NCBI GenBank assembly: GCA_977017645.1
Contig: OZ360222.1
Location: 81,282,001-81,346,000 of the forward strand
Length of the DNA stretch: 64,000 nucleotides
Direction: 5' to 3'
From: Torpedo marmorata
Taxonomy: Eukaryota
The position numbers and the translations under genes are program-made. A model generated the notes under the pieces. That model saw only the letters and a list, made by a program, of their open reading frames with translations. It had not been told where the DNA came from and made no database searches. This document shows positions 35,965 to 61,965 of the stretch, piece after piece. How positions within the stretch are numbered: position 1 is the stretch's first letter; each line of letters starts with the position of its first letter.

Positions 35965-36748
35965 GTCAAGTTTATTATCATTGATTGCATACATACAACC
36001 CGACGAAACAGCCTTCTCTGGTCCTCGGTGCAAAACATGCAGGCACACAACCGGACATAACACACATACAGACAAACAATACATATGCAGGACAAGTATT
36101 CATATATACAAATAAATAAATATTGTTTCATGAGTATGAGAGTCTCGGATGGTTAGTGTGAGCAGTTCCTTTGGTCGTTCAGCATTCTCACTGCCCATGG
36201 GAAGAAGTTATTTCTCAGCCTGGTGGTGCTTGCTCTGATACTCCTCTATCTCTTTCTCGACAGGAGTAGCTAAAAGATGCTGTGTGCGGGGTGGAAGGGG
36301 TCCTCAATGATTTTGCGCGCCCTCTTCAGTCAAAGATCCCGGTAGATCACGTCGATGGTGGGAGGGAGACTCCAGTGATCCTCTCTGCCACCCTTATGGT
36401 CTTATGGATTGACCTCCGATCCATTTCTCTGCAGCAACCGTACTACACTGTGATGCAGCCAGCTAGGACGCTCTCGATAGAGCTCCTGTAGAAGGTTGAC
36501 ATGATGGTGGCCAGTAGCCTTGCCTGCTTCAGTCTTCTCAGGAAGTGCAGTTGTTGTTGTGCCTTCCTGACGAGTGAGATGTTGTGTGTCCACGATAGGT
36601 CACTAGTTAAGTGAACTCCAAGGAACTTCGTGCTCTCCACTCTCTCTACTACAGAGTTGTTGATGTGTAGTGGAGGGTGGTCATTCCTGGTCCTCTTGAA
36701 GTCCATGATCATCTCCTTCGTCTTGTCCACATTGAGACTCAGGTTGTT
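35965..36748 (-). mobile_element. Rex1/Babar-type LINE 3' fragment
   Basis: ORF 36443-36814 NNLSLNVDKTKEMIMDF...KFLGVHLTSDLSW...KAQQQLHFLRRLK; 3' end homologous to the 3295 copy. Confidence 0.92.
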
Positions 36749-36889
36749 ACGATCAGAATATTTAGTAATTATCTTCATATTGAGGCAGGTACTTGATTCG
36801 CATTTCCCATGCATTTCTAAATCTGACTCTGTGGCACTTGATTTGCTGCCTTCTAATGGAAATCATGGTGTCACAGAAATAGTAAAAAA

Positions 36890-42410: not shown

Positions 42411-42587
42411 CAGGGATGGCAAACCTTTTAATTTTTAATTTAGACATACAGCACGATAACAGGCCATTTCGGCCCATGAGTCCATGCCGCCCAATTAACC
42501 TACATCCCCGGTACGTACTCGTGGGCCGAAATGGCCTGTTACCGTGCTGTACGTATAAATCAAAAATTAAAAGGTTGGCCACCCCTG
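42411..42587. mobile_element. Chimeric fold-back MITE: hAT-type TIRs with inverted V-SINE tail arms
   Basis: CAGGGATGGCAAACCTTTT...AAAAGGTTGGCCACCCCTG; ~71-bp arms contain the SINE tail; flanks GCTTAGA(TT)G and GCTTAGAG. Confidence 0.8.
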
Positions 42588-43861: not shown

Positions 43862-46800
43862 ATTTTTTTTTAACCTAAAATAGACTTTATTCACAATAGA
43901 TTATTTACAAAAGGAAAACCATTCAAAATCTCTTCCAACCATTAACTTTGTATCCATACATTTCCATCGCTATTAATTGTTACATTCATTTCTATTTACA
44001 CCATTGCCACCACTGTGGCATCATGTCGTTACTCTCCCTTCTGTTGTTTGAGGGGCTTCTCCTCGGTCTCGGCCCCTCAATGCCCAGTAATGGAAGGACT
44101 GTAGACTGTGGTCCTTCCCCCACAGTGCCCTCGTGTTATCTGCGCCAAACATCAGTGCATCCGTCAGAACGTACTCCTGCAGCCTGGAATGTGCCAGTCA
44201 GCAGTATTCCCACACCGACATTTCTGTGTGCTGCCAACAGGTTTCAGGCAGATCAAAGTGTGTCTTTTAACAAGTTGATGGTCTTTCAGCAGTTCTGGAA
44301 GTCTGACTCTGTGCGCATCCCCGGGAACAGCCCGTAATCAGAGAATCCTCTGTGATGCTGCTGTTCTGGATGAACTGTGACAAGGACCCTTGTTTCCTTG
44401 TCCACACACTCCCAGTAAATCTGCTTTCTGCAAAGAGGTGGGCGATGGTCTCTACTCCATCGCACTCATCTTGGAGACAATGTGCGGTATGGATGATGTT
44501 CCCGTTGTACAGGAATGATCTGATTGGAAGGGCTCCTCTCACCGCCATCTAGGCCAAGTCCTGGTGCTTATTTGAAAGCAATGGCAATGAGGCATTCCGC
44601 CAGATGAGCTGGACGATCTACTCCGGGAACCACCCCACCGTGTCCATCGAGTCCTTGTCTCTCAAAGTGTTTGCAGGACGTTCCATGGGACCACTGCTAG
44701 ATGGCCTTGTGGTCAAAGATGTTTGTCTGGAAAAACCTTTCCACGAAGGCTAGGTGGTGTGTCAAAATCCAGGTGACTGGGACATTGCGCGGCAATAGGG
44801 CCAGGCCCAATCCTTCGCAACACCTGGGACAGGTAGAACCTCAGAACATAGCAGCACAGTGCCCTCATACTTTGGTTCCACGCACAGCCTGTTGCACCCA
44901 CACACATTGTCTGGTGACTTGTACATGCCAACCTGTTGGACCTTTTCCATCTTGGATCTCCATATGAACCTGAAAACCAGAATCTCCCACACCTCCTCTG
45001 GTGGAGGTGCGGGTGATTGGCCACACCTGTGCCACGTACAGCAGAACCGAGAGCACCTCGCATCTGATGACCAGGTTCTTCACAGACGTGTCCACAGACC
45101 CAAGTTCTGGTGGACCTTTGCAATCCGCTCTGGCCAATTTTTGTTGCATGCCTCGGCCCATCCAAACCAAATCCCCAACACCTTCAAGTAGTCAGATCTG
45201 ACTGAAGGGGATAGTTGACTGGCCAGATTAGTTACCAAAGAGCATTGCTTCGCTCTTCTTCTGGTTTGGCCTGGCATCCGATGCAGACTCAAAATGACTG
45301 CAGATGCTGATCAGTCTGTGGAGTGATCGTGTGTCCGAATAGAAGTCCGCGATGTCATCCATGTACAGGGAGGCCTTGATCTGAGTGCCTCCACTGCCAG
45401 GCAACGTCATTCCTCTTATACTCTCGTCCTTCCTGATGGATTCAGCAAAGGGCTCTATGCAGCACACAAATAAGACGAGAGAGAGTGGGCAACCCTGCCT
45501 GACTCCAGACTTGATGGAGAACCTATTTGTTTCCCACCCATTGATTTGAACTGCACTACAGATGTCAGTTTAATCTAATTTCAGATTCCATCCCCAAATC
45601 CTATTTTGGAGAGCACATCCATCATGTACGTGTGTGATATCTGGTCAAAAACCTTCTTGAGTACGCTGACCAGGCAGGTGTCCACCTTCCTGTCCTGCAT
45701 GTAGGTGATGCTATCTCTGAACAGTGCGAGGCTGCAGAGATTTTCCTGCCCAGAACCGTGCAGGTTTGGTCTGGGTAGATCACCTGCCCCATGGCAGACT
45801 TGACTCGATTGGTGATGGCTTTGGACAGGAATTTGTAGTCAACGTTTAACAATGAAATGGGTCTCCAATTCCTGATTTCCTTCTTCTCCCCCTTCTGTTT
45901 GAAGATAAGGGTGATGATTCCCTTCCTCATGAAGTCTGACATGCTGCCTGCCAGGAGCATAGTAGTGTATACTCCCAGCAGGTCCGGACTCACCCAGTTC
46001 CACAGAGCCATGTACAACTCAGCCAGTAAGCTGTCGCTTCTGGGAATTTTACTCAACCCAAATGAACCAGGGTAATTGGCTGGTCCAAACTCTCCTGCTT
46101 GCAGTCGTCTAAGACCTCCGTGATAGAGGACAGGATGCACTGGGAGGCCATTCTGCCTCTAGCCTTAGTGTCGTACAGTTCAGCATAAAAGAATCTGCTG
46201 TTCCTCTGAATGCCTCTCTGCAAGGTTGTGACTGAGCTGCCCTCTTCCTTAAGTCGGTGAATCACAGAGCTCCCTGTGTGAACCTTTTGGAAGAAGAAAT
46301 GTGAGCATGTCTCATCCTGCTCCACTGTGCGGACTCTGGATCAGATGATGATCTTGGAGAACTCTGAGGTGAATAGCGCATCTTGCTGGATCTTTGCCTC
46401 TTGGATTTCCTCCCTCACCTCCACCCCTTTCAACTTCAGAAGGAGGAATTGCTGCAGGTCAGTCTGGAGTTGGCTCAGTTCCCTATGCCTCTGTCTTGCT
46501 CTCCGAACACCTTTCAGGATAAATAACCTCTTGATGTTCTCCTTGGTCTCTTCCCACCAGTTCACTGGGGAGTCAAAGAAGGGTTTCACGGTTCTCCAAC
46601 CAGCGAACGTACTCCTTCTTTAGTTCTTCTCTGTTCTCTGGTGTCAGCAACTTCACGTCCAGCTTCCATATTCCCCTGCCCACCTTCTGGTCCTCCTGTA
46701 GGTGACAGGAGACATGAAGGAGGCAGTGGTCAGAGAAGAACACCGGCATGACATTGGTGGTTCTGAACGTGACAGCCTTCGACACGAAGACGAAGTCTAT

Positions 46801-47156: not shown

Positions 47157-48155
47157 TTTTTTAAACCAAAAATGGACTTTATTCACAATATTTTTTTTAC
47201 ATAAGGAAAACCGTCCATAGTCTCTTCCCACGCTTAGTTTCATATCCATAACATTTCCATCATTGTACATTGTTACATTCATTTCTGTTTATACCATGAC
47301 CACCACTGTGGCATCTTGTTGTTACTCCTCCTTCTGTTGTTTGAGGGACTTCCCCTCGGTCTCAGCCCCTCAATGCCTGGTAATGGAAGGACTCAAGACT
47401 GTGGTCCTTCCCCACATGCTATCTGCACAAAGCCTCAGTGTGGCCCTCAGAATGTACACCTGCAGCCTGGAATGTGCCAGTCGGCAGCATTCCCTCACCA
47501 ACATCTCTGTGTGCTGAAAGACCAACAGGTTTCGGGGCAGACCAAAGTGCATCTTTCACCGAGTTGATGGCCTTTCAGCAGTTCTGGATGTCTGACTCTG
47601 TGTGTGTCCCCAGGTACAGTCCGTAAATCAGAAAGTCCTCTGTCATGCTGCTGCTGTGGATGAACTGTGACATGGACCCTTGCTTCCTTCTCCACACACT
47701 CCTCGCAAATCTGCATTCTGCAAAGAGTGGGCAACTGTCTTCTTTCCACCGCAGTCATCTTGGGGACAGCATGCGGTATGGATGATGTTCCGGTTCTACA
47801 GGAAGGATCTGACTGGGAGGGCTCCTCTCACTGTCAGCCAGGCCAAGTCCTGGTGCTTTTTCATGAGCACTGGTGATGAGACATTCCACCAGATGACCTG
47901 AACAGTCTGCTCAGTGAACCACCCTACCATGTCCATCGATGCCTCGTCTCTCAAAGTGTCTGCAGGATGTTCCATGCTGAGTACTGCCTGATGGTCTTGT
48001 GATCAAAGGTGTTTGTCTGGAAAAACTTTTCCACGAAGGATAGGTGGTGTGGCAAACTCCAGTTGACGGGGACATTGCGTGGCCACAGGGCCAGGCCCAT
48101 CCTTCGCAAACGGTGATTATGATGCAGCCACACACTAAGCTGATGAGCACACCAT
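47157..48155 (-). mobile_element. Second Tx1 3' fragment, directly adjoining the first copy
   Basis: Colinear with 43862-44820 (shared GACTTTATTCACAATA 3' end and RRMGLA/WPRNVP/SFVEKFFQTNTFDHK). Confidence 0.9.
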
Positions 48156-54100: not shown

Positions 54101-54210
54101 ACTTCTGGTTTGTCCGCTGTGGATCAGTTGCCCTCCTGCTTTTGTGCCAGAGGCTGTGTGTGGGTCCAAATCTGACTCCAGTTGATTGAAAACAGAGTAA
54201 ATTGTTGTTC

Positions 54211-55036
54211 AAGATTCAAGATTCAATTTGTTATCATGTAATATTGCACTGTTTTTATTACATGAAATTCACTTTAGTCTGCCGTAGGGCAGAGAGATTC
54301 GCCATCAGCAGAAATTGCCTGAAGCACCTCTTACAGTCAGAGAAAGAGAAGCAAAAGAGAGTCGCCCCCCCAGAGTCACCTAGTGTCCGTGGATTTGCCT
54401 CCAGCGCTTACGCAGCCCACGCAGCCACAGAGTCCAGTCCAAACCATCAGCAGCCCGAGTTCCAGATCCGAACCTCCGACATCATCAGGAAGCCTTCAGT
54501 GCCCTCAGCACCCTCTTGCATCCCAGTTCTGATACCTGGTACCCCTTCAGCCAGTCTTGAGCCAGTCTCCAGCAGTCCGCCATCTGGTGTGAATCCCTCG
54601 CCTCGAATCTCCAACAGCCGACCGACCGCCTGTGCATTTCTTCAATCGCTGAACTCCTCACAGGTCCACTGCTGTGATCACCGTCCCATGGGTCCTCTCC
54701 TCTGCTTCTCCTTCTCAAACGGGGGTGGGGGGGGGGGGTGGTTGTCTCCTCGCTTTCTAGTGCCCTGCACCAGTCCTCTGCTTCCCCGGAATTGGCAACC
54801 CCTCGTGGCTGCTGCCGATCATAGGCACTGCCATCTTGGGCGCAGACACCGCGGTCGTAGTATTTTAATTAAAACCACCGTTGGCTCCATTTACAGGCCC
54901 TTTAAAGCCTGTACAGAGCTGACGGCAGTCGGACTGGGTGGATGGACCCCGCGGGAGCGCTGTGTCTCCGCTCCTCACTCTCCACAGGTCCTCGGCAGTG
55001 CTGCCGTTACAGCAGCTCTGGCAGCACCGCCATCTT
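54211..55036 (-). mobile_element. GC-rich non-autonomous retroposon, copy B (more diverged)
   Basis: (CAAGATT)n tail at the left, CCGCCATCTT head at the right, flanking TTGTTC duplication (54205-54210 and 55035-55040). Confidence 0.88.
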
Positions 55037-55174
55037 GTTCCAGTGGTGAGGAGGTGCACTATAGTGCAACATGATATTTTAAATTGAAACTTTCTCAGAG
55101 GACACATAAAATCAAACGGTGGATCCAATCTCAGATTAGGAAAATCATTGCAGGGATCGTGGAAAATATTTATC

Positions 55175-56015
55175 AAGATTCAAGATTCAAGATTCAATTT
55201 ATTGTCATAGTAATAAGACAGTGTCATATTCCATGAAATTTCTTTTTGCCTGCTGCAGACAGATTCGCCACTGGCAGAAATTGCCTAAGCGCCTCTAACA
55301 TTCCTTACAGTCAGAGAAAGAGAAGCAAAAGAGAGTCCCCCCAGAGTCACCGAGTGTCCATAGATTCGCCTCCAGCGCTTCCGCAGCCACACAGAGTCCA
55401 GTCCAAACAATCAGCAACCCAAGCTCCAGATCCAAACCTCCGACACGGTCAGATCGCCCTCGGCACCCCCTCGCAACCCGGTTCCGATACCTGGTACTCC
55501 TCCAGCCAGTTCGAGCCAGCCTCCAGCAGTCCGCAGCCCGGCGTGAGTCCCCCGACAGCAGTCTCCAGCAGCCCACAGCCTCCGCGGGTTCCTCGCCTCG
55601 AGTCGCCAGCAGCCCGCCGCATGCACTGGTCCTTCAGCCTCAGAGCCCCTCACCGGTCCGCCACCGTGGTCACAATCCCGTGGGTGGTCTCCTCCGCTTC
55701 TCCTTCTCAGACGGGGGGTGATCTTCCCGTCCTCTGGTGCCCTGCTCCACTCCTCCGCTTCCCTCGAATCTGCAGCCCCTCTTGGCTGCTGCAGGTTAAA
55801 AGGCGCTGCCATCTTGGGCGCAGACCCCGTGGTCGCGGGATCATAAATAAAACCACCGTTGGCTCCTTTAATGGGCCGTTCAAAGCCCGTGCGGAACCGA
55901 TGGCAGTCGACTGGGCAGCTGGACCCCGCGGGAGCGCTGCATCTCCGCTCCCATGCTCCCCGCATGTCCGCACCAGCGGCAGCGCTGCCGCTATAGCGGC
56001 TCCGGCAGCGCCGCC
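55175..56015 (-). mobile_element. GC-rich non-autonomous retroposon, copy C
   Basis: Close match to copy A; TSD ATTTATC (55168-55174 and 56016-56022); the empty site is visible in the duplicated copy at ~60262-60275. Confidence 0.92.
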
Positions 56016-56217
56016 ATTTATCCCTCAACCAATAGCTAAACACATAATATCTAGTCATTATTACATTCCATTTTCTTTTCTGCATATTATTGCTGCCTTT
56101 CACAATCATAACATCGATTATGCATTAATTGTATCCTGTCATGGAAGGTGTATGAATTCAAGCCCTTCTTTCTTTATCTTGACATGGATGGCTGATCGTT
56201 ATATTGCATCTTAATCC

Positions 56218-59200
56218 GATGATCCAGTATTTTTTGAAAAGTTTTTTTCCTTTTTACCTGATTTAAATCGGTATTCATTGATTTTGGGAGGTGATTTTAG
56301 TTTTAGACTGTTCTTCGTTAAAATTATCAACTCTCTCTAAATCTGCAGTATTATTACATTCCTTTATGTCGAATTTTGGTATTACAGATGTTTGGCGTTT
56401 TTTAAATCCCACTAGTAGAGAATATTCTTTTCTGTCCAATGTTCATCGTTCTTATATGAGGATAGATTACTTTTTAATTGATAATCAATTAATCTCTATG
56501 ACTAAATCATGTGAATATCAAGGAATAGTGATTTCTGATCATGCTCCAGTTATTTTATCTATGAACTTCAATGATATCCCATTTATAAAAAGACATTGGA
56601 GATTTAATACGACTCTCCTTGAAAATCAAGATTTTTTAAACTTTATGGAGAAGCAAATACAGTTCTTTTTTGCTACTAATTCTTCTCCGACGATGTCTAA
56701 TTTGATAGTTTTGGAAACTATGAAATCCTATTTGAGAGGACAAATTATTTCATATACTGCTAATATTAAGAAGAAATCTAATAAGGAAAGATCTGATTTA
56801 ATTAACCAGATTAAACAAATTGACATTCAATTTTCTCAAAATAAAAATCCAGATTTGTATAAGAGAAGAGTAGAGCTTAAAGCAAAATTTGATCTTCTAT
56901 CTACTTATCCCGTTGAGCAACAATTGTTAAGAAGTAGAAGTCTCTTTTATATTCATGGAGAAAAAACTAGTAAGTTACTAGCTGGACAATTGAAATGAAT
57001 TTCTGCTAAAAAACAAATAAATAAAATTAGGATGAAAGATGGAAAAATGACAACAGATGATCTTGAAATAAATGAGACTTTTAAGGAATTTTACTCTAAC
57101 CTCTATAAATCAGAATTTGGTAATAATCATGACTTGATGTCATAATTTTTGGATCGATTGAATCTTCCGGTATTACCTCAGGATGAACGTGCAAGCTTTG
57201 AGAAACCTATTTCTCAAGAGGATATAGCTGTCGCTTTTTCCTCGCTACAGTCTGGTAAATATCCAGGGCCAGACGGATTTCCTGTGTAAGTTTATAAACC
57301 TTTCTCCAACCAGCTTGTACCTCATCTGAGTGTGGTATTGGGTGACTCATTTAATGAGCAAAAGCTTCCCGTATCTTTTAATGAGGCCAGTATTTCCTTA
57401 ATTCTTAAAAAGGGTAAAGAATCGACTGAATGCACATCTTATAGACCCATTTCTTTACTTAATGTGGATATGAAGATTTTGTCCAAAGTATTAGCACATA
57501 GATTAGAAAATATTTTACCTTTAATTATCGATTCAGATCAGACTGCTTTTATTAAAAATCGTTATTCATATTATAACATTAATAAATTTTGGAATATTTT
57601 ATATTTATCTTCTACTCCAGCGACGGAATGTGTCCTTTCATTAGATGCTGAAAAAGCATTTGATCGGGTGGAGTGGGAATATTTATTTGCTATTTTACAT
57701 CAATTTAATTTTGGTTCTGATTTTATTAAATGGATTAAGTTATTATACTCTTGTCCTATTGCCTCAGTTCGATCTAATTTACAACAATCAAATATGTTTC
57801 GGCTTAATAGAGGAACCCGACAGGGTTGCCCATTAAGTCCTTTGCTTTTTGATATAGTATTAGAACCTTTAGCTGTTGCTCTTCGACAATGTAGAGAATT
57901 TAAAGGTATAACTAGAAAAGGAATTGAACATAAAGTATCTCTCTATGCAGACAATTTATTGTTATTTATTTCAAACCCTGAAGTCTCTATACCAAATATA
58001 TTAACCCTATTTACTCAATTTAGTCAATTTTCAGGGTATAAATTAAACCTACAAAAGAGTGAACTATTGCCTTTAAAAGGACCTCTTATTGGTTATTCCA
58101 ATTTTCCATTTAAAATAGTGAGCGATCAATTCCAATACTTAGGAATAACAACTACAAAAAACCATAAAAATTTACTGAAAGAAAATTTTTGGGTATTAGT
58201 TAATAAGATTAAATTACAATTATTGGGTTGATCACCCTTATCAATTACAATGATGGGCCGTATTAATTTGATTAAAATGAATATTTTGCCTAAATTTTTA
58301 TATCTTTTCCAATCCTTACCAATTTTTATTCCTAAAACTTTTTTTACTTCATTAGATTCGATTCTTTCTTCATATATATGGCAGGGAAAACATCCACGAA
58401 TAAATAAATCCCATCTTCAAAAAATCAAAAGAAATGGAGGGTTATCACTTCCAGATTTTAGATTTTATTATTGGGCTATTAATATTCATAATTTGCTTTT
58501 GTTATTGCAATTTGATAAGTTAGAGAATCACCCATCCTGGGTGGAAATGGAATTGAAGTTTTCAAAAAAATCATCGATGTTTGCAATTTTAGGAACCTTT
58601 TTACCATTTTCATTTGTTAAATTAACTCATACCCATTATTGAGATATAGGTTGAGAATATGGGCACAGTTTAGAATTTTTTTTGGATTTAATAGCTTTTC
58701 TCTGGCTAGTCCTATTATAGATAATCACATTTTCCAGCCGTCTGAAATGGATGTAGGATTTAGGGAATGGTATAGATTGGGAATTCATAGTTTTAATGAT
58801 CTTTTTATTTGAGATAGTTTTGCCATTTTTGAACAATTGGTCAATAAATTTAACCTTACTAATAGACAATTATTTAGATATTTACAAATTAGACATTTTA
58901 TTCAGTCTAAGCTTTCAGATTTTCTTCGAATTTCAAGTTCTAATTTTCTCGATTTACTTTTTAATCTACGGTTCTTTTTCCAACGTGGATTAACATCATG
59001 TATATATAATAATTTATTGGAAATCAGAGTAGCTTCTATGACGGGGATCAAGAATGAATGGGAATGTGATTTGAATGTTACATTTTCAGATGAAGATTGG
59101 TATAATGCTCGATCTAATTAATGCCTCATCTTTTTGTGCTAGACACTGTTTACTACAATTTAAAGTGGTACATAGAATTCACGTTTTTACACCGACATAG

Positions 59201-60000
59201 ATCCATTGTGTGAGAGATGTAAAATTTTTGAAGCTTCACTGATACATATGTTTTGGGAATGCCCCAATTTGGAGAGATTTTTGAAGGATATTTTAAAATC
59301 TTTATCATTGATTTTTAAGATTAATATTGAACCATGTCCTATAATTGCTCTGTTTGGTTTTTCACGTGAACCTAACATACCTTTGTCTTCATCACAGGAA
59401 AAAGTTTTAGCTTTTTCCACATTGATTGCCAGACGAGCAATTTTATTGAAATGGAAAGATGAGTTATCACCGACACATAGACAGTGGTTACAGGATGTAA
59501 TGTCCTATCTGAGTTTGGAGAAAATTAGATATAATATTAAAGATAGAAAGTTTCAATTTTTAAAGATCTGAGGGCCATTCATTGAATACTATTATGATTG
59601 GAAGAATTAACAAAACTGACTATCCCGAGGAGTCTCTGTCCGATGCTTGGAGGTCGCTGCAGGATCCATACCTTTTTTTTGTTCTTTTCCTTCTTTTTTG
59701 CAACATCAAGGTAACCTTGCTTAGAGGGAGGGGTTAGAATAGATTAGTTATTAGTGTTTTTTTTTGTCTTTTTTTTTCTTTCTTTTTATTTTATTTTCAA
59801 TTGTTCTTTTTTTAAGATAATTATACAGAACTAGAGTTTTAACCTATATTCAGAATTTAGTTACGACAATTTACCTAGTTTTTAAAAAATATATATACAT
59901 GTATGAATACCAGCTGATTTTTTGAATGTTTTTCTTAATTTTGTTACTTTGTATGCATGTTTATTGTTGAAACTCAATAAAAATATTTTAAAAAGAAAAG
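56218..60000 (+). mobile_element. L1-clade LINE (fish-type), 5'-truncated within the endonuclease; ORF2 has stops and frameshifts
   Basis: DDPVFF..LILGGDF, RIDYFL, ISDHAP, WRFNTTLL, PGPDGF, YRPISLLNVD, SLDAEKAFDRVEW, RGTRQGCPLSPLLF, LYADN, YLGI, CERC...HMFWECP; AATAAA at 59976 and A-rich tail. Confidence 0.97.
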
Positions 60001-61716
60001 AAAGCCTGTACAAAGCTGACGGCAGTCGGACTGGGCGGATGGACCCCGCGGGAGCGCTGTGTCTCCGCTCCTCACTCTCCGCAGGTCCTCAGCAGCGCTG
60101 CCGTTACAGCAGCTCTGGCAGCACCGCCATCTTGTTTCAGTGCTGAGGACGTGTACGACAGTGCAACATGATATTTTAAATTGAAACTTTCTCAGAGGAC
60201 ACATAAAATCAAACGGTGGATCCTATCTCAGATTAGGAAAATCATTGCAGGGATCATGGACAATATTTATCCCTCAACCAATAGCTAAACACATAATATC
60301 TAGTCATTATTACATTCCATTTTCTTTTCTGCATATTATTGCTGCCTTTCACAATCATAACATCGATTATGCATTAATTGTATCCTGTCATGGAAGGTGT
60401 TGTATGAATTCAAGTCCTTCTTTCTTTATCTTGACATGGATGGCTGATCATTATATTGCATCTTAATCCTATTAGATATCTGAAATGAGGAAATGTAACC
60501 CATAAAAGTAAGATTTTTCCGTTGGCTGTAAGAAAAAGATTGTTATCATTAAACACTTGGACTCTATACAATTGCGGAGAAGTAGGATAAAAATGTAACA
60601 TTTTATTATTCCTTGACAACACTGTCCTTCGTGGGCGGGGGGTACGGATAAGATGATTGTTAGCTAGTTCTTCGAGGAGTAGTTGTTGGGTACCAAGTCC
60701 TGGCTGGCTTTTGTCTGACATCATCAATTGTCTATCACAAAATGCAAGTTCTAACAAATTTCTGGCAGGTGATCAAAGGCTGACTTCCCTCCCAATACCA
60801 AACCAGTGGCAATGAGACCAGTTGTATATCCCTCCCTACTACTGCTGCAACTGAGATCAATAACTTATTGTAGGTCAGCAATGAACCCAGGATTATTCTG
60901 GTTATCATATTTTCTCGTGGTTCATATTAGATTATCAAATAATATTTTGCATAGAGGTCTTTTAAGGGATCCTTAATTAAAAATTAAAGTAAATTTTAAT
61001 GCTCCTCCATTCAAAGAACAGAAATAATTTTATTATTTTTTCCATTCATATTCTATGTCATATTTAATTTGGTATTAAAAATTATATCGTTTGTATATTC
61101 ATGGCACTGAATGTTTTTGACCAAGGTTCCTTCCAAGTGTTGAACCAGTACACATGGTTGAACAGCCAAGGTCAGTGAGATGAGTATACAAGCTGTAAAT
61201 CAAAAGTCCACTGTTATCGTGCCCCATTTTCACAATAACTTTCTGGCTTCTAAATGTTCAAAATTACCTATTAAATGAAATTACTTTGAATAATTATTAT
61301 ATTTGTATCAATAGATTGAAGCCTTAGCCAACCGGCAACTCTAGTTAATCTTAGCAGTAAATTGTGCGCTTTTTACTCCAATTAGTGAGTATTGTGGCAT
61401 AGGAATTGTGTAAGTTAATAATACAGAATCCAGTATTACAAAGCAGTCGACTGTATTTTTCCAATAGGTTATGCAATTAGCAGTTTTTTCATTTAATATT
61501 AAAATAATTTCATCAGCAAGAAAGCTGACCATCTTCTCCAATCTACTCTTATCAGCTAAATAATTAGTTAAGATAAACCTTATTCTTTATGCAGTAATGC
61601 TGTATTATTAATTATTCAGAAATTTCCGCCAAAGGTGACATTCAGGAGTTTTAACCATTTGTAGTATGCATAAACTGCGAACTGCTTCTAAATTGTACAG
61701 AGACACTATAGTTATA

Positions 61717-61965
61717 GGGGCGGCACAATTGGCGTAGCGGTTAGCGCAACGCCTTTACAGCGCCAGCAATCGGGACCGGGGTTCGAATCCCGCGCTGTCT
61801 GTACGGAGTTTGTATGTTCTCCCCGTGTCTGCGTGGGTTTTCCCCGGGGGCTCCGGATTCCTCCCACCGTTTGAAATGTACCGGGGGTGTAGGATAATTG
61901 GGTGAAATTGGGCAGCACCAACTTGTGGGCCGAAATAGCCTGTTACCGTGCTGTATGTCTAAAGA
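61717..61965 (+). mobile_element. tRNA-derived V-SINE (HE1-like), full length
   Basis: A box TGGCGTAGCGG, B box GGTTCGAATCC, V-core, CR1-like tail. Confidence 0.93.

Follow-up and report, generated by a model that had tools for sequence, protein, structure and literature searches.

A probable oversized target-site duplication around a 5'-truncated L1 element in the genome of Torpedo marmorata

How does a retrotransposon come to lie between two copies of several hundred base pairs of host DNA? This question is raised by a locus in a 64,000-nucleotide stretch of the Torpedo marmorata genome (the window in what follows; assembly GCA_977017645.1, contig OZ360222.1, positions 81,282,001 to 81,346,000 of the forward strand), where an L1 element is flanked by two direct copies of one host segment. 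L1 endonuclease is described as cutting 5'-TTTT/AA-type sites (10.1101/2024.12.14.628481 / PMC11702581; 10.1101/2025.10.25.684559), and ordinary target-site duplications (TSDs) measure 9-21 bp (PMC4245944; PMC2912911; PMC12350158; 10.1101/2025.10.25.684559), with an L1-clade peak at 13-15 bp in human, cow, opossum and zebrafish (PMC4245944) and a median of 21 bp for human polymorphic inserts (PMC12350158). An initial annotation of the locus placed an L1 at 56218-60000 between copies of a sequence of about 467 bp and attributed the repeat to retrotransposition itself. The coordinates hold, the two copies being 466 and 469 bp long, and we consider it probable that the L1 insertion itself made the second copy, as an oversized TSD produced in one insertion event.

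The repeat is well defined along its whole length. The left copy (54904-56217, plus strand) amounts to 466 bp once an 848-bp later insert is removed, namely a repeat that we term element C and one copy of its 7-bp flanking repeat, and the right copy (469 bp, plus strand) is uninterrupted. In the gapped alignment, 54904-55167 and 60001-60264 show 14 mismatches in 264 positions, 56016-56148 and 60265-60397 none in 133, and 56149-56217 and 60401-60469 two in 69, while three extra bases of the right copy, at about 60398-60400, form the sole indel. The copies are thus separated by 16 substitutions over 466 columns (3.4%), as had been estimated by eye (about 16, 3-4%). Self-BLAST joins 54904-55174 to 60001-60271 at 95% identity (E 1e-119) and 56016-56220 to 60265-60472 at 97% (E 1e-95), so that their resemblance is not due to chance. 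Half of the substitutions (8/16) are in CpG context, and their distribution along the repeat is uneven (14/264 vs 2/202, Fisher p=0.01). Six of the 16 fall within 23 bp (55040-55062 / 60137-60159), just outside the 5' end of an older repeat, element B; they are spread over both lineages, each at a G or C of the inferred ancestor, and the 133 bp of 56016-56148 are identical. A mutational hotspot, multi-base mutations and gene conversion are all candidates for this cluster, and we do not choose between them.

Each end of the repeat coincides exactly with an L1 junction. The left copy opens in CCCTTT/AAAG, as initially annotated; endonuclease-type sites as good as this TT/AAAG number 221 among 63,527 plus-strand positions in the window (0.35%). 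Its last base is 56217, and tblastn homology to full-length L1 open reading frame 2 (ORF2) begins at 56218, at residue 117 of P0003 and 128 of P0002. The right copy directly abuts the A-rich tail of the L1, which confirms the earlier description, and neither a second A-tail nor a short TSD follows 60469. At the far end of the segment, the best sites in the last 30 bp are TT/ATAT and TT/AATC, with 2 of 4 purines. The duplication is tied to the L1 insertion by this endonuclease-type start, by the A-tail abutting the right copy and by ORF2 beginning at the base after the left copy. This part of the earlier proposal stands, and the route that it named, a distal nick or strand invasion, is not distinguishable from others.

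The duplicated DNA itself is, judged by its letters, not L1-derived, since no frame of the right copy shows L1 homology when compared with a profile built from 74 ORF2 N-termini; on the left, the match of this profile starts at the junction. A tblastn extension to 56089 had raised the candidate of a host end that was an old L1 remnant, or homeologous to the L1 upstream of its truncation. It was rejected because the profile is empty in the right copy and because the anchored codon-profile score at the 5' junction (a protein-derived profile, which bears on microhomology there as well) is equalled or exceeded by 4-25% of window positions, depending on which of four lengths is used (p=0.04-0.25).

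The insert, 3,783 bp long, can be assigned provisionally, from its sequence, to the L1 clade of long interspersed elements (LINEs): it carries an APE endonuclease followed by a reverse transcriptase (RT), then a poly(A) signal and an A-rich tail, and its named matches are LINE-1-type RT proteins of fishes. The decayed ORF2 (56218-59607) begins inside the endonuclease domain and is interrupted by 6 in-frame stops and by 4 or more frame breaks. It matches RVT_1 of Pfam (E=2.8e-38) and an endonuclease-domain profile (E=1e-40), and it is colinear in tblastn with full-length proteins that carry both domains (59-60% over 770-780 residues). The closest homologues are 62-64% identical, the named ones coming from teleosts and a ray, and none nearer than 64% was found among the best 120 of 1,470. 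The 3' untranslated region comprises a T-rich tract, AATAAA at 59976-59981 and an 11-base A-rich tail at 59990-60000. Seen over 59990-60004, the tail consists of three A-runs, each closed by a G and the last one ending in the target's own AAAG, which may be a trace of priming more than once at the nick, or of slippage at a later time. In searches for relatives sharing the 5' junction, 134 pattern matches in JGI metagenomes yielded 0 confirmed cases of same-family DNA, and protein searches found no same-family protein with the junction peptide.

The segment is also marked by two copies of another repeat family, which bear on the order of events. Elements A, B and C are copies of one non-coding, retroposon-like family of about 850 bp with a GC-rich 5' end and a 3' tail of tandem 7-mers; the long frames of the family had no Pfam match. 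Its 5' end is hairpin-prone and begins near AAGATGGCG. B and C share one orientation, and 140 bp separate their insertion points. The target site of the L1 falls within B, some 130 bp away from the 5' end of that element. Element C is flanked by a 7-bp direct repeat (55168-55174 / 56016-56022), of which up to 2 bases per end may belong to the element. At non-CpG positions, B differs by 16% from A and C, and A differs from C by 4.2%. On this measure B is the oldest part of the locus and predates the L1 event, since it is so diverged from A and C and since the duplication starts inside it. Element A lies in or beside an LTR-retrotransposon-like element (76-1615) with decayed RT and integrase (rve) frames.

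Table 1. Positions of the L1, the two copies of the duplicated segment and the associated repeats, counted from the first base of the window
Feature	Position	Strand	Evidence or remark
Element A	1440-2303		same ~850-bp family
Element B, older family copy	54208-55035	-	self-BLAST 73% to 55179-56017, 75% to 1442-2303; tail repeat
Endonuclease-type target site TT/AAAG (bottom strand CTTT/AA)	54902-54907	+	sequence; first base of duplication
Left copy, first part (~130 bp of element B 5' end and host DNA)	54904-55174	+	95% to 60001-60271
Element C, younger family copy, in left copy only	55175-56015	-	91% to element A at 1440-2303
Left copy, second part (host DNA, ends at L1 5' junction)	56016-56217	+	97% to 60265-60469
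5'-truncated fish-type L1, 3,783 bp	56218-60000	+	RVT_1, tblastn, family 3' end
Right copy, colinear with downstream flank in relatives	60001-60469	+	alignment; organism-B 1.8-kb contig 60092-61700

What the segment looked like before the L1 can be approached through related organisms. Parts of the region are present in five runs from two samples: X1 represents organism A, with 0.59 of words, and X2-X5 all come from a single sample of organism B, with 0.14 of words. All contigs of X1, X2, X4 and X5 were aligned to 56196-61700, X3 (same size and sample as X2) being left out. In organism B, a single contig of 1.8 kb runs through the segment into the flank at about 90% identity and without element C; it is the sole contig over 60150-60415 among the matches listed. 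In X1, a single 302-nt contig (60104-60405), the only one at 60143-60250 among the matches listed, differs by 5 letters and has 0 gaps, hence no element C. The left-copy letter is found in both organisms at 60143, 60150, 60154 and 60224, and at 60415 in organism B and most of the X1 depth, while 60159 has the right letter in X1 and a third letter in organism B. We infer that 60157, 60256 and 60261 are right-type in the relatives, since these positions have no listed row and the X1 contig has just one unlisted difference. Among the 11 differences of the host part, the direction of change is not assignable at 60137 and 60450; of the 5 in the B part, for which A, C and the CpG direction served as reference, 3 are changes of the left copy and 2 of the right. 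Each copy has thus gained about 7 changes, with 2 lacking an assigned direction.

In both organisms the left and right letter types alternate within 31 bases, which, as a recombinant, needs at least 4 switches. As far as these letters go, the relatives' copy is the ancestral single copy, since a mosaic switching within 31 bp fits neither a popped assembly bubble nor one crossover. We rejected on the same grounds the possibility that the X1 mosaic is a loop-out recombinant or a bubble-popping artefact, organism B being in agreement. The initial annotation had called for an orthologous site with a single copy and no L1: one C-free copy of ancestral type is found in X1 and in organism B, from which an empty, pre-insertion site may be deduced.

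The same contigs bear on whether the right copy arrived by itself. The 5' end of the A/B/C family corresponds to 60130 (diverse loose ends in 96-312 contigs per run), and 151-165 contigs per organism-B run show that at 60001 a family copy ordinarily runs on into the body of the element. The right copy is not a separate family insertion, because it starts mid-element and continues into host DNA. As to the L1 family, its 3' end lies near 60003, as seen from diverse loose ends in organism B contigs. The stretch 60244-60427 has a depth of 23 in X1 and of 12-14 in organism B, whereas the L1 reaches 1e5-1.4e6 and 1e2-1e4, respectively. In organism B, the flanks that follow L1 3' ends are unrelated (agreement 0.35-0.36). 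The segment is therefore single-copy and does not trail L1 copies, and 3' transduction, which had been named as a way for the proposal to fail, is ruled out. In X1, where unique DNA has a depth of about 10, the family also accounts for 13,694 aligned contigs at >=99% identity, and in organism B its matches are mostly below 95%; summed depth gives no exact copy number, and a large, recent expansion after the split of X1 and organism B is likely.

We therefore favour an oversized TSD, which could have arisen as follows. L1 endonuclease would have nicked the bottom strand at TT/AAAG (54903/54904), inside the older element B, and reverse transcription would have proceeded for 3.8 kb before stopping in the endonuclease domain. 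Instead of the usual second nick about 15 bp away, the end of the complementary DNA would then have been joined to a top-strand 3' end that lay free some 469 bp downstream. This distal end was most likely supplied by host replication or repair, in the form of a nick far from the first or of a sister chromatid that had broken. Fill-in synthesis would leave the segment on both sides of the L1, the allele would pass through the germ line, by which the second host copy was apparently inherited, and each copy would gain about 1.7% changes; element C would then likely have inserted into the left copy. A distal second nick, sister-chromatid invasion, break-induced copying and a crossover between two L1 alleles are not separable from such a final sequence.

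The order of events could be upheld in part. The earlier reading placed B first, then the L1 with the duplication, then C in the left duplicate. The seniority of B stands; the late arrival of C is likely, on grounds of parsimony. Relative to A, element C has private changes at 10/634 non-CpG and 13/149 CpG-context positions, which set an upper bound on its age, and its non-CpG rate does not differ from the per-copy rate of the duplication (8/860, p=0.34), nor does the CpG-context rate (p=0.63). For the L1 itself, the 6 stops give a decay of 3.8% (95% range 1.4-8.4%), at a stop probability of 0.046 per substitution and with 4 additional tblastn stops in a frameshifted stretch excluded, against 1.7% (1.0-2.8%) per copy. 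By this estimate the L1 is not younger than the duplication, since its decay range overlaps the per-copy divergence.

Several observations weigh against a single, simply dated insertion event. In the flank, the window differs from X1 at 4/466, 8/387 and 4/178 positions, that is 16/1031 (1.55%), and the divergence between the copies (16/466) is twice this value (p=0.03), though X1 seems to be without the insert. X1 has 0-1 private changes in 302 bp, against 4-5 for each copy. Only one flank contig allows polarisation; its 4 changes all belong to X1 and 0 to the window, against 8/604 window-lineage changes in the copies (p=0.011); were all 12 unpolarised flank changes the window's, this contrast of flank and copies would vanish (p=0.82). 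A simple clock does not fit, because of this doubled copy divergence and the few private changes of X1, and there is room for copies derived from two haplotypes. The 6 stops of the L1 are also slightly many for 1.7% (p=0.055). Moreover, the 5' junction between L1 and host is seen in no run and no listed contig spans the stretch (per run, one contig overruns a stretch end, the one at 61700); contigs show presence, not absence. Loose contig ends at 56218 do not appear among the matches listed, and the organism-B contig continues upstream for 225 further letters. At 60415, finally, 11.7 of 28.3 of the X1 depth reads the right-copy letter. The 3.4% is a loose date only and does not date the event as cleanly as first proposed. 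The excess may mean that the copies decayed faster, that the allele is old and an empty one survived in the X1 lineage, or that the copies come from two haplotypes.

This last possibility brings in the main competing explanation, an unequal crossover between two ordinary, offset L1 insertions on homologues, one at each end of the segment, that leaves a chimeric L1 between two copies. It yields the same final anatomy, it could draw on an extremely abundant L1 family (X1 depth 1e5-1e6 vs ~10), and copies that start as two haplotypes would suit the excess divergence, an L1 at least as old as the duplication and the presence of C in one copy. However, it requires two co-segregating insertions in the same orientation 469 bp apart, and the second of them would need an endonuclease site no more than about 20 bp from 56217, a stretch that offers only 2-of-4 sites; the short branch of X1 is left unexplained here too. 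We regard this crossover as unlikely. Another objection is that the assembly wrote two haplotypes, or a repeat-induced misjoin, in tandem: no read of the window organism spans the structure, the junctions are seen in no run, and the window contains two N gaps elsewhere. Against such an artefact, private derived changes are about equally numerous in the two copies, the join at 56217/56218 offers no overlap usable by an assembler, the host end having no L1 homology or significant resemblance, and both junctions bear L1 hallmarks, which makes it very improbable.

Even less credit can be given to a tandem duplication that came first and received the L1 later, exactly at the join between the copies. 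This is formally possible, but the join would have read CC/AAAG and not TT/AAAG, the good site being the start of the left copy; the insertion would have had to hit one exact base, without a TSD of its own; relatives have one copy; and the L1 has decayed no less than the copies have diverged. We hold this order to be nearly refuted. The least probable account has the right copy brought from elsewhere, behind the L1 by 3' transduction or by capture during break repair. The position of the right copy directly after the L1 tail is what it predicts, yet there is no second A-tail or short TSD downstream, organism B has the right copy and the downstream flank in one colinear stretch, and the single-copy segment and the unrelated flanks of other L1 3' ends refute transduction for the family at large. 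A wider proposal builds on the oversized TSD: the L1 family would routinely end germ-line insertions at distant host DNA ends, seeding many heritable sub-kilobase duplications missed by TSD finders capped at 30 bp, and the second copy would have come here from the homologous chromosome. Such an origin would account for both the excess divergence and the presence of C in one copy only; we rate the proposal as a whole as unlikely.

Other repeats of the window were also considered. Two 83%-identical stretches of about 955 bp (43865-44820 and 47157-48109, minus strand) had looked like a second giant TSD; this was rejected, because each is the 3' end of a copy of one and the same LINE family, with a T-run at its low end and a match to zf-RVT. 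One copy is long and decayed, has endonuclease and RT, and extends from 43865 to about 47150; the other is 5'-truncated and lies head-to-tail directly upstream. The family is presumably Tx1-like. Copies of a SINE-like repeat (short interspersed element) of about 220 bp, 87-89% identical, lie at 3451-3665, 4566-4799, 61736-61963 and 42431-42560, and two ALKBH8_N matches (3783-4226 and 36446-36862) are what we take to be a DUF1891-type LINE tail. Host protein families were not found in a scan of 60 of the longer frames outside the duplication and its L1. The two assembly gaps (6718-6940 and 6993-7219, 450 N in total) are far from it.

The duplication is most likely a further case of a known, rare class, notable for being apparently inherited and aged. 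Giant L1 TSDs are known from cell lines and tumours, and this one appears natural. Alleles with large TSDs are expected to be short-lived, since recombination between their copies can remove the L1 as a loop (PMC5223499, Discussion), yet these copies seem to have lasted long enough for 3.4% divergence and a nested insertion. The germ-line frequency of large TSDs is little measured, because the genome survey of PMC2912911 collected only TSDs of 5-30 bp. We found no inherited or fish example of a large L1 TSD in the literature; as most subscription papers fell outside the coverage, such a case may nonetheless have been published. A lone non-coding example changes no mechanism, but counting such cases across the family in this L1-rich genome would tell how often they arise in the germ line and whether L1 contributes small local duplications to any real extent.

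How does this locus compare with known systems? Ordinary L1-clade TSDs have the same 3'-end hallmarks and are about 30 times shorter (PMC4245944; PMC12350158). TSDs above 100 bp accompany at most 10% of insertions in HeLa cells and 57-91% in cells deficient in nucleotide excision repair (XPA/XPC/XPD), with listed examples of 242-6,765 bp, and a distal unrelated nick or a replication end has been proposed as their source (PMC5223499). These human duplications share with ours the endonuclease-type start, the A-tail at the 3' junction, the 5'-truncated insert and a size in range, but they stem from engineered elements in cell lines and have identical copies, whereas here a genome assembly shows 3.4% divergence, a nested insertion and a fish-type L1 lineage (PMC5223499). 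The zebrafish element ZfL2-2 gave one 1,228-bp TSD in 25 insertions in chicken DT40 cells (PMC2666801). A fish LINE can thus yield a kilobase-scale TSD in repair-proficient cells, although ZfL2-2 is of the L2 clade and its insertion was made in cell culture and not inherited (PMC2666801). In tumours, an L1-bridged tandem duplication of 22.6 Mb was explained by a sister-chromatid model (PMC7058536), and tandem duplications of 1-10 kb have been regarded as large TSDs, with break-induced replication proposed (10.1101/2024.12.14.628481; first version PMC11702581). As in our locus, one L1 lies between two direct copies with an endonuclease motif at the 3' breakpoint; the tumour events are somatic and larger, whereas the duplication described here measures 0.47 kb and is apparently heritable (PMC7058536; 10.1101/2024.12.14.628481).

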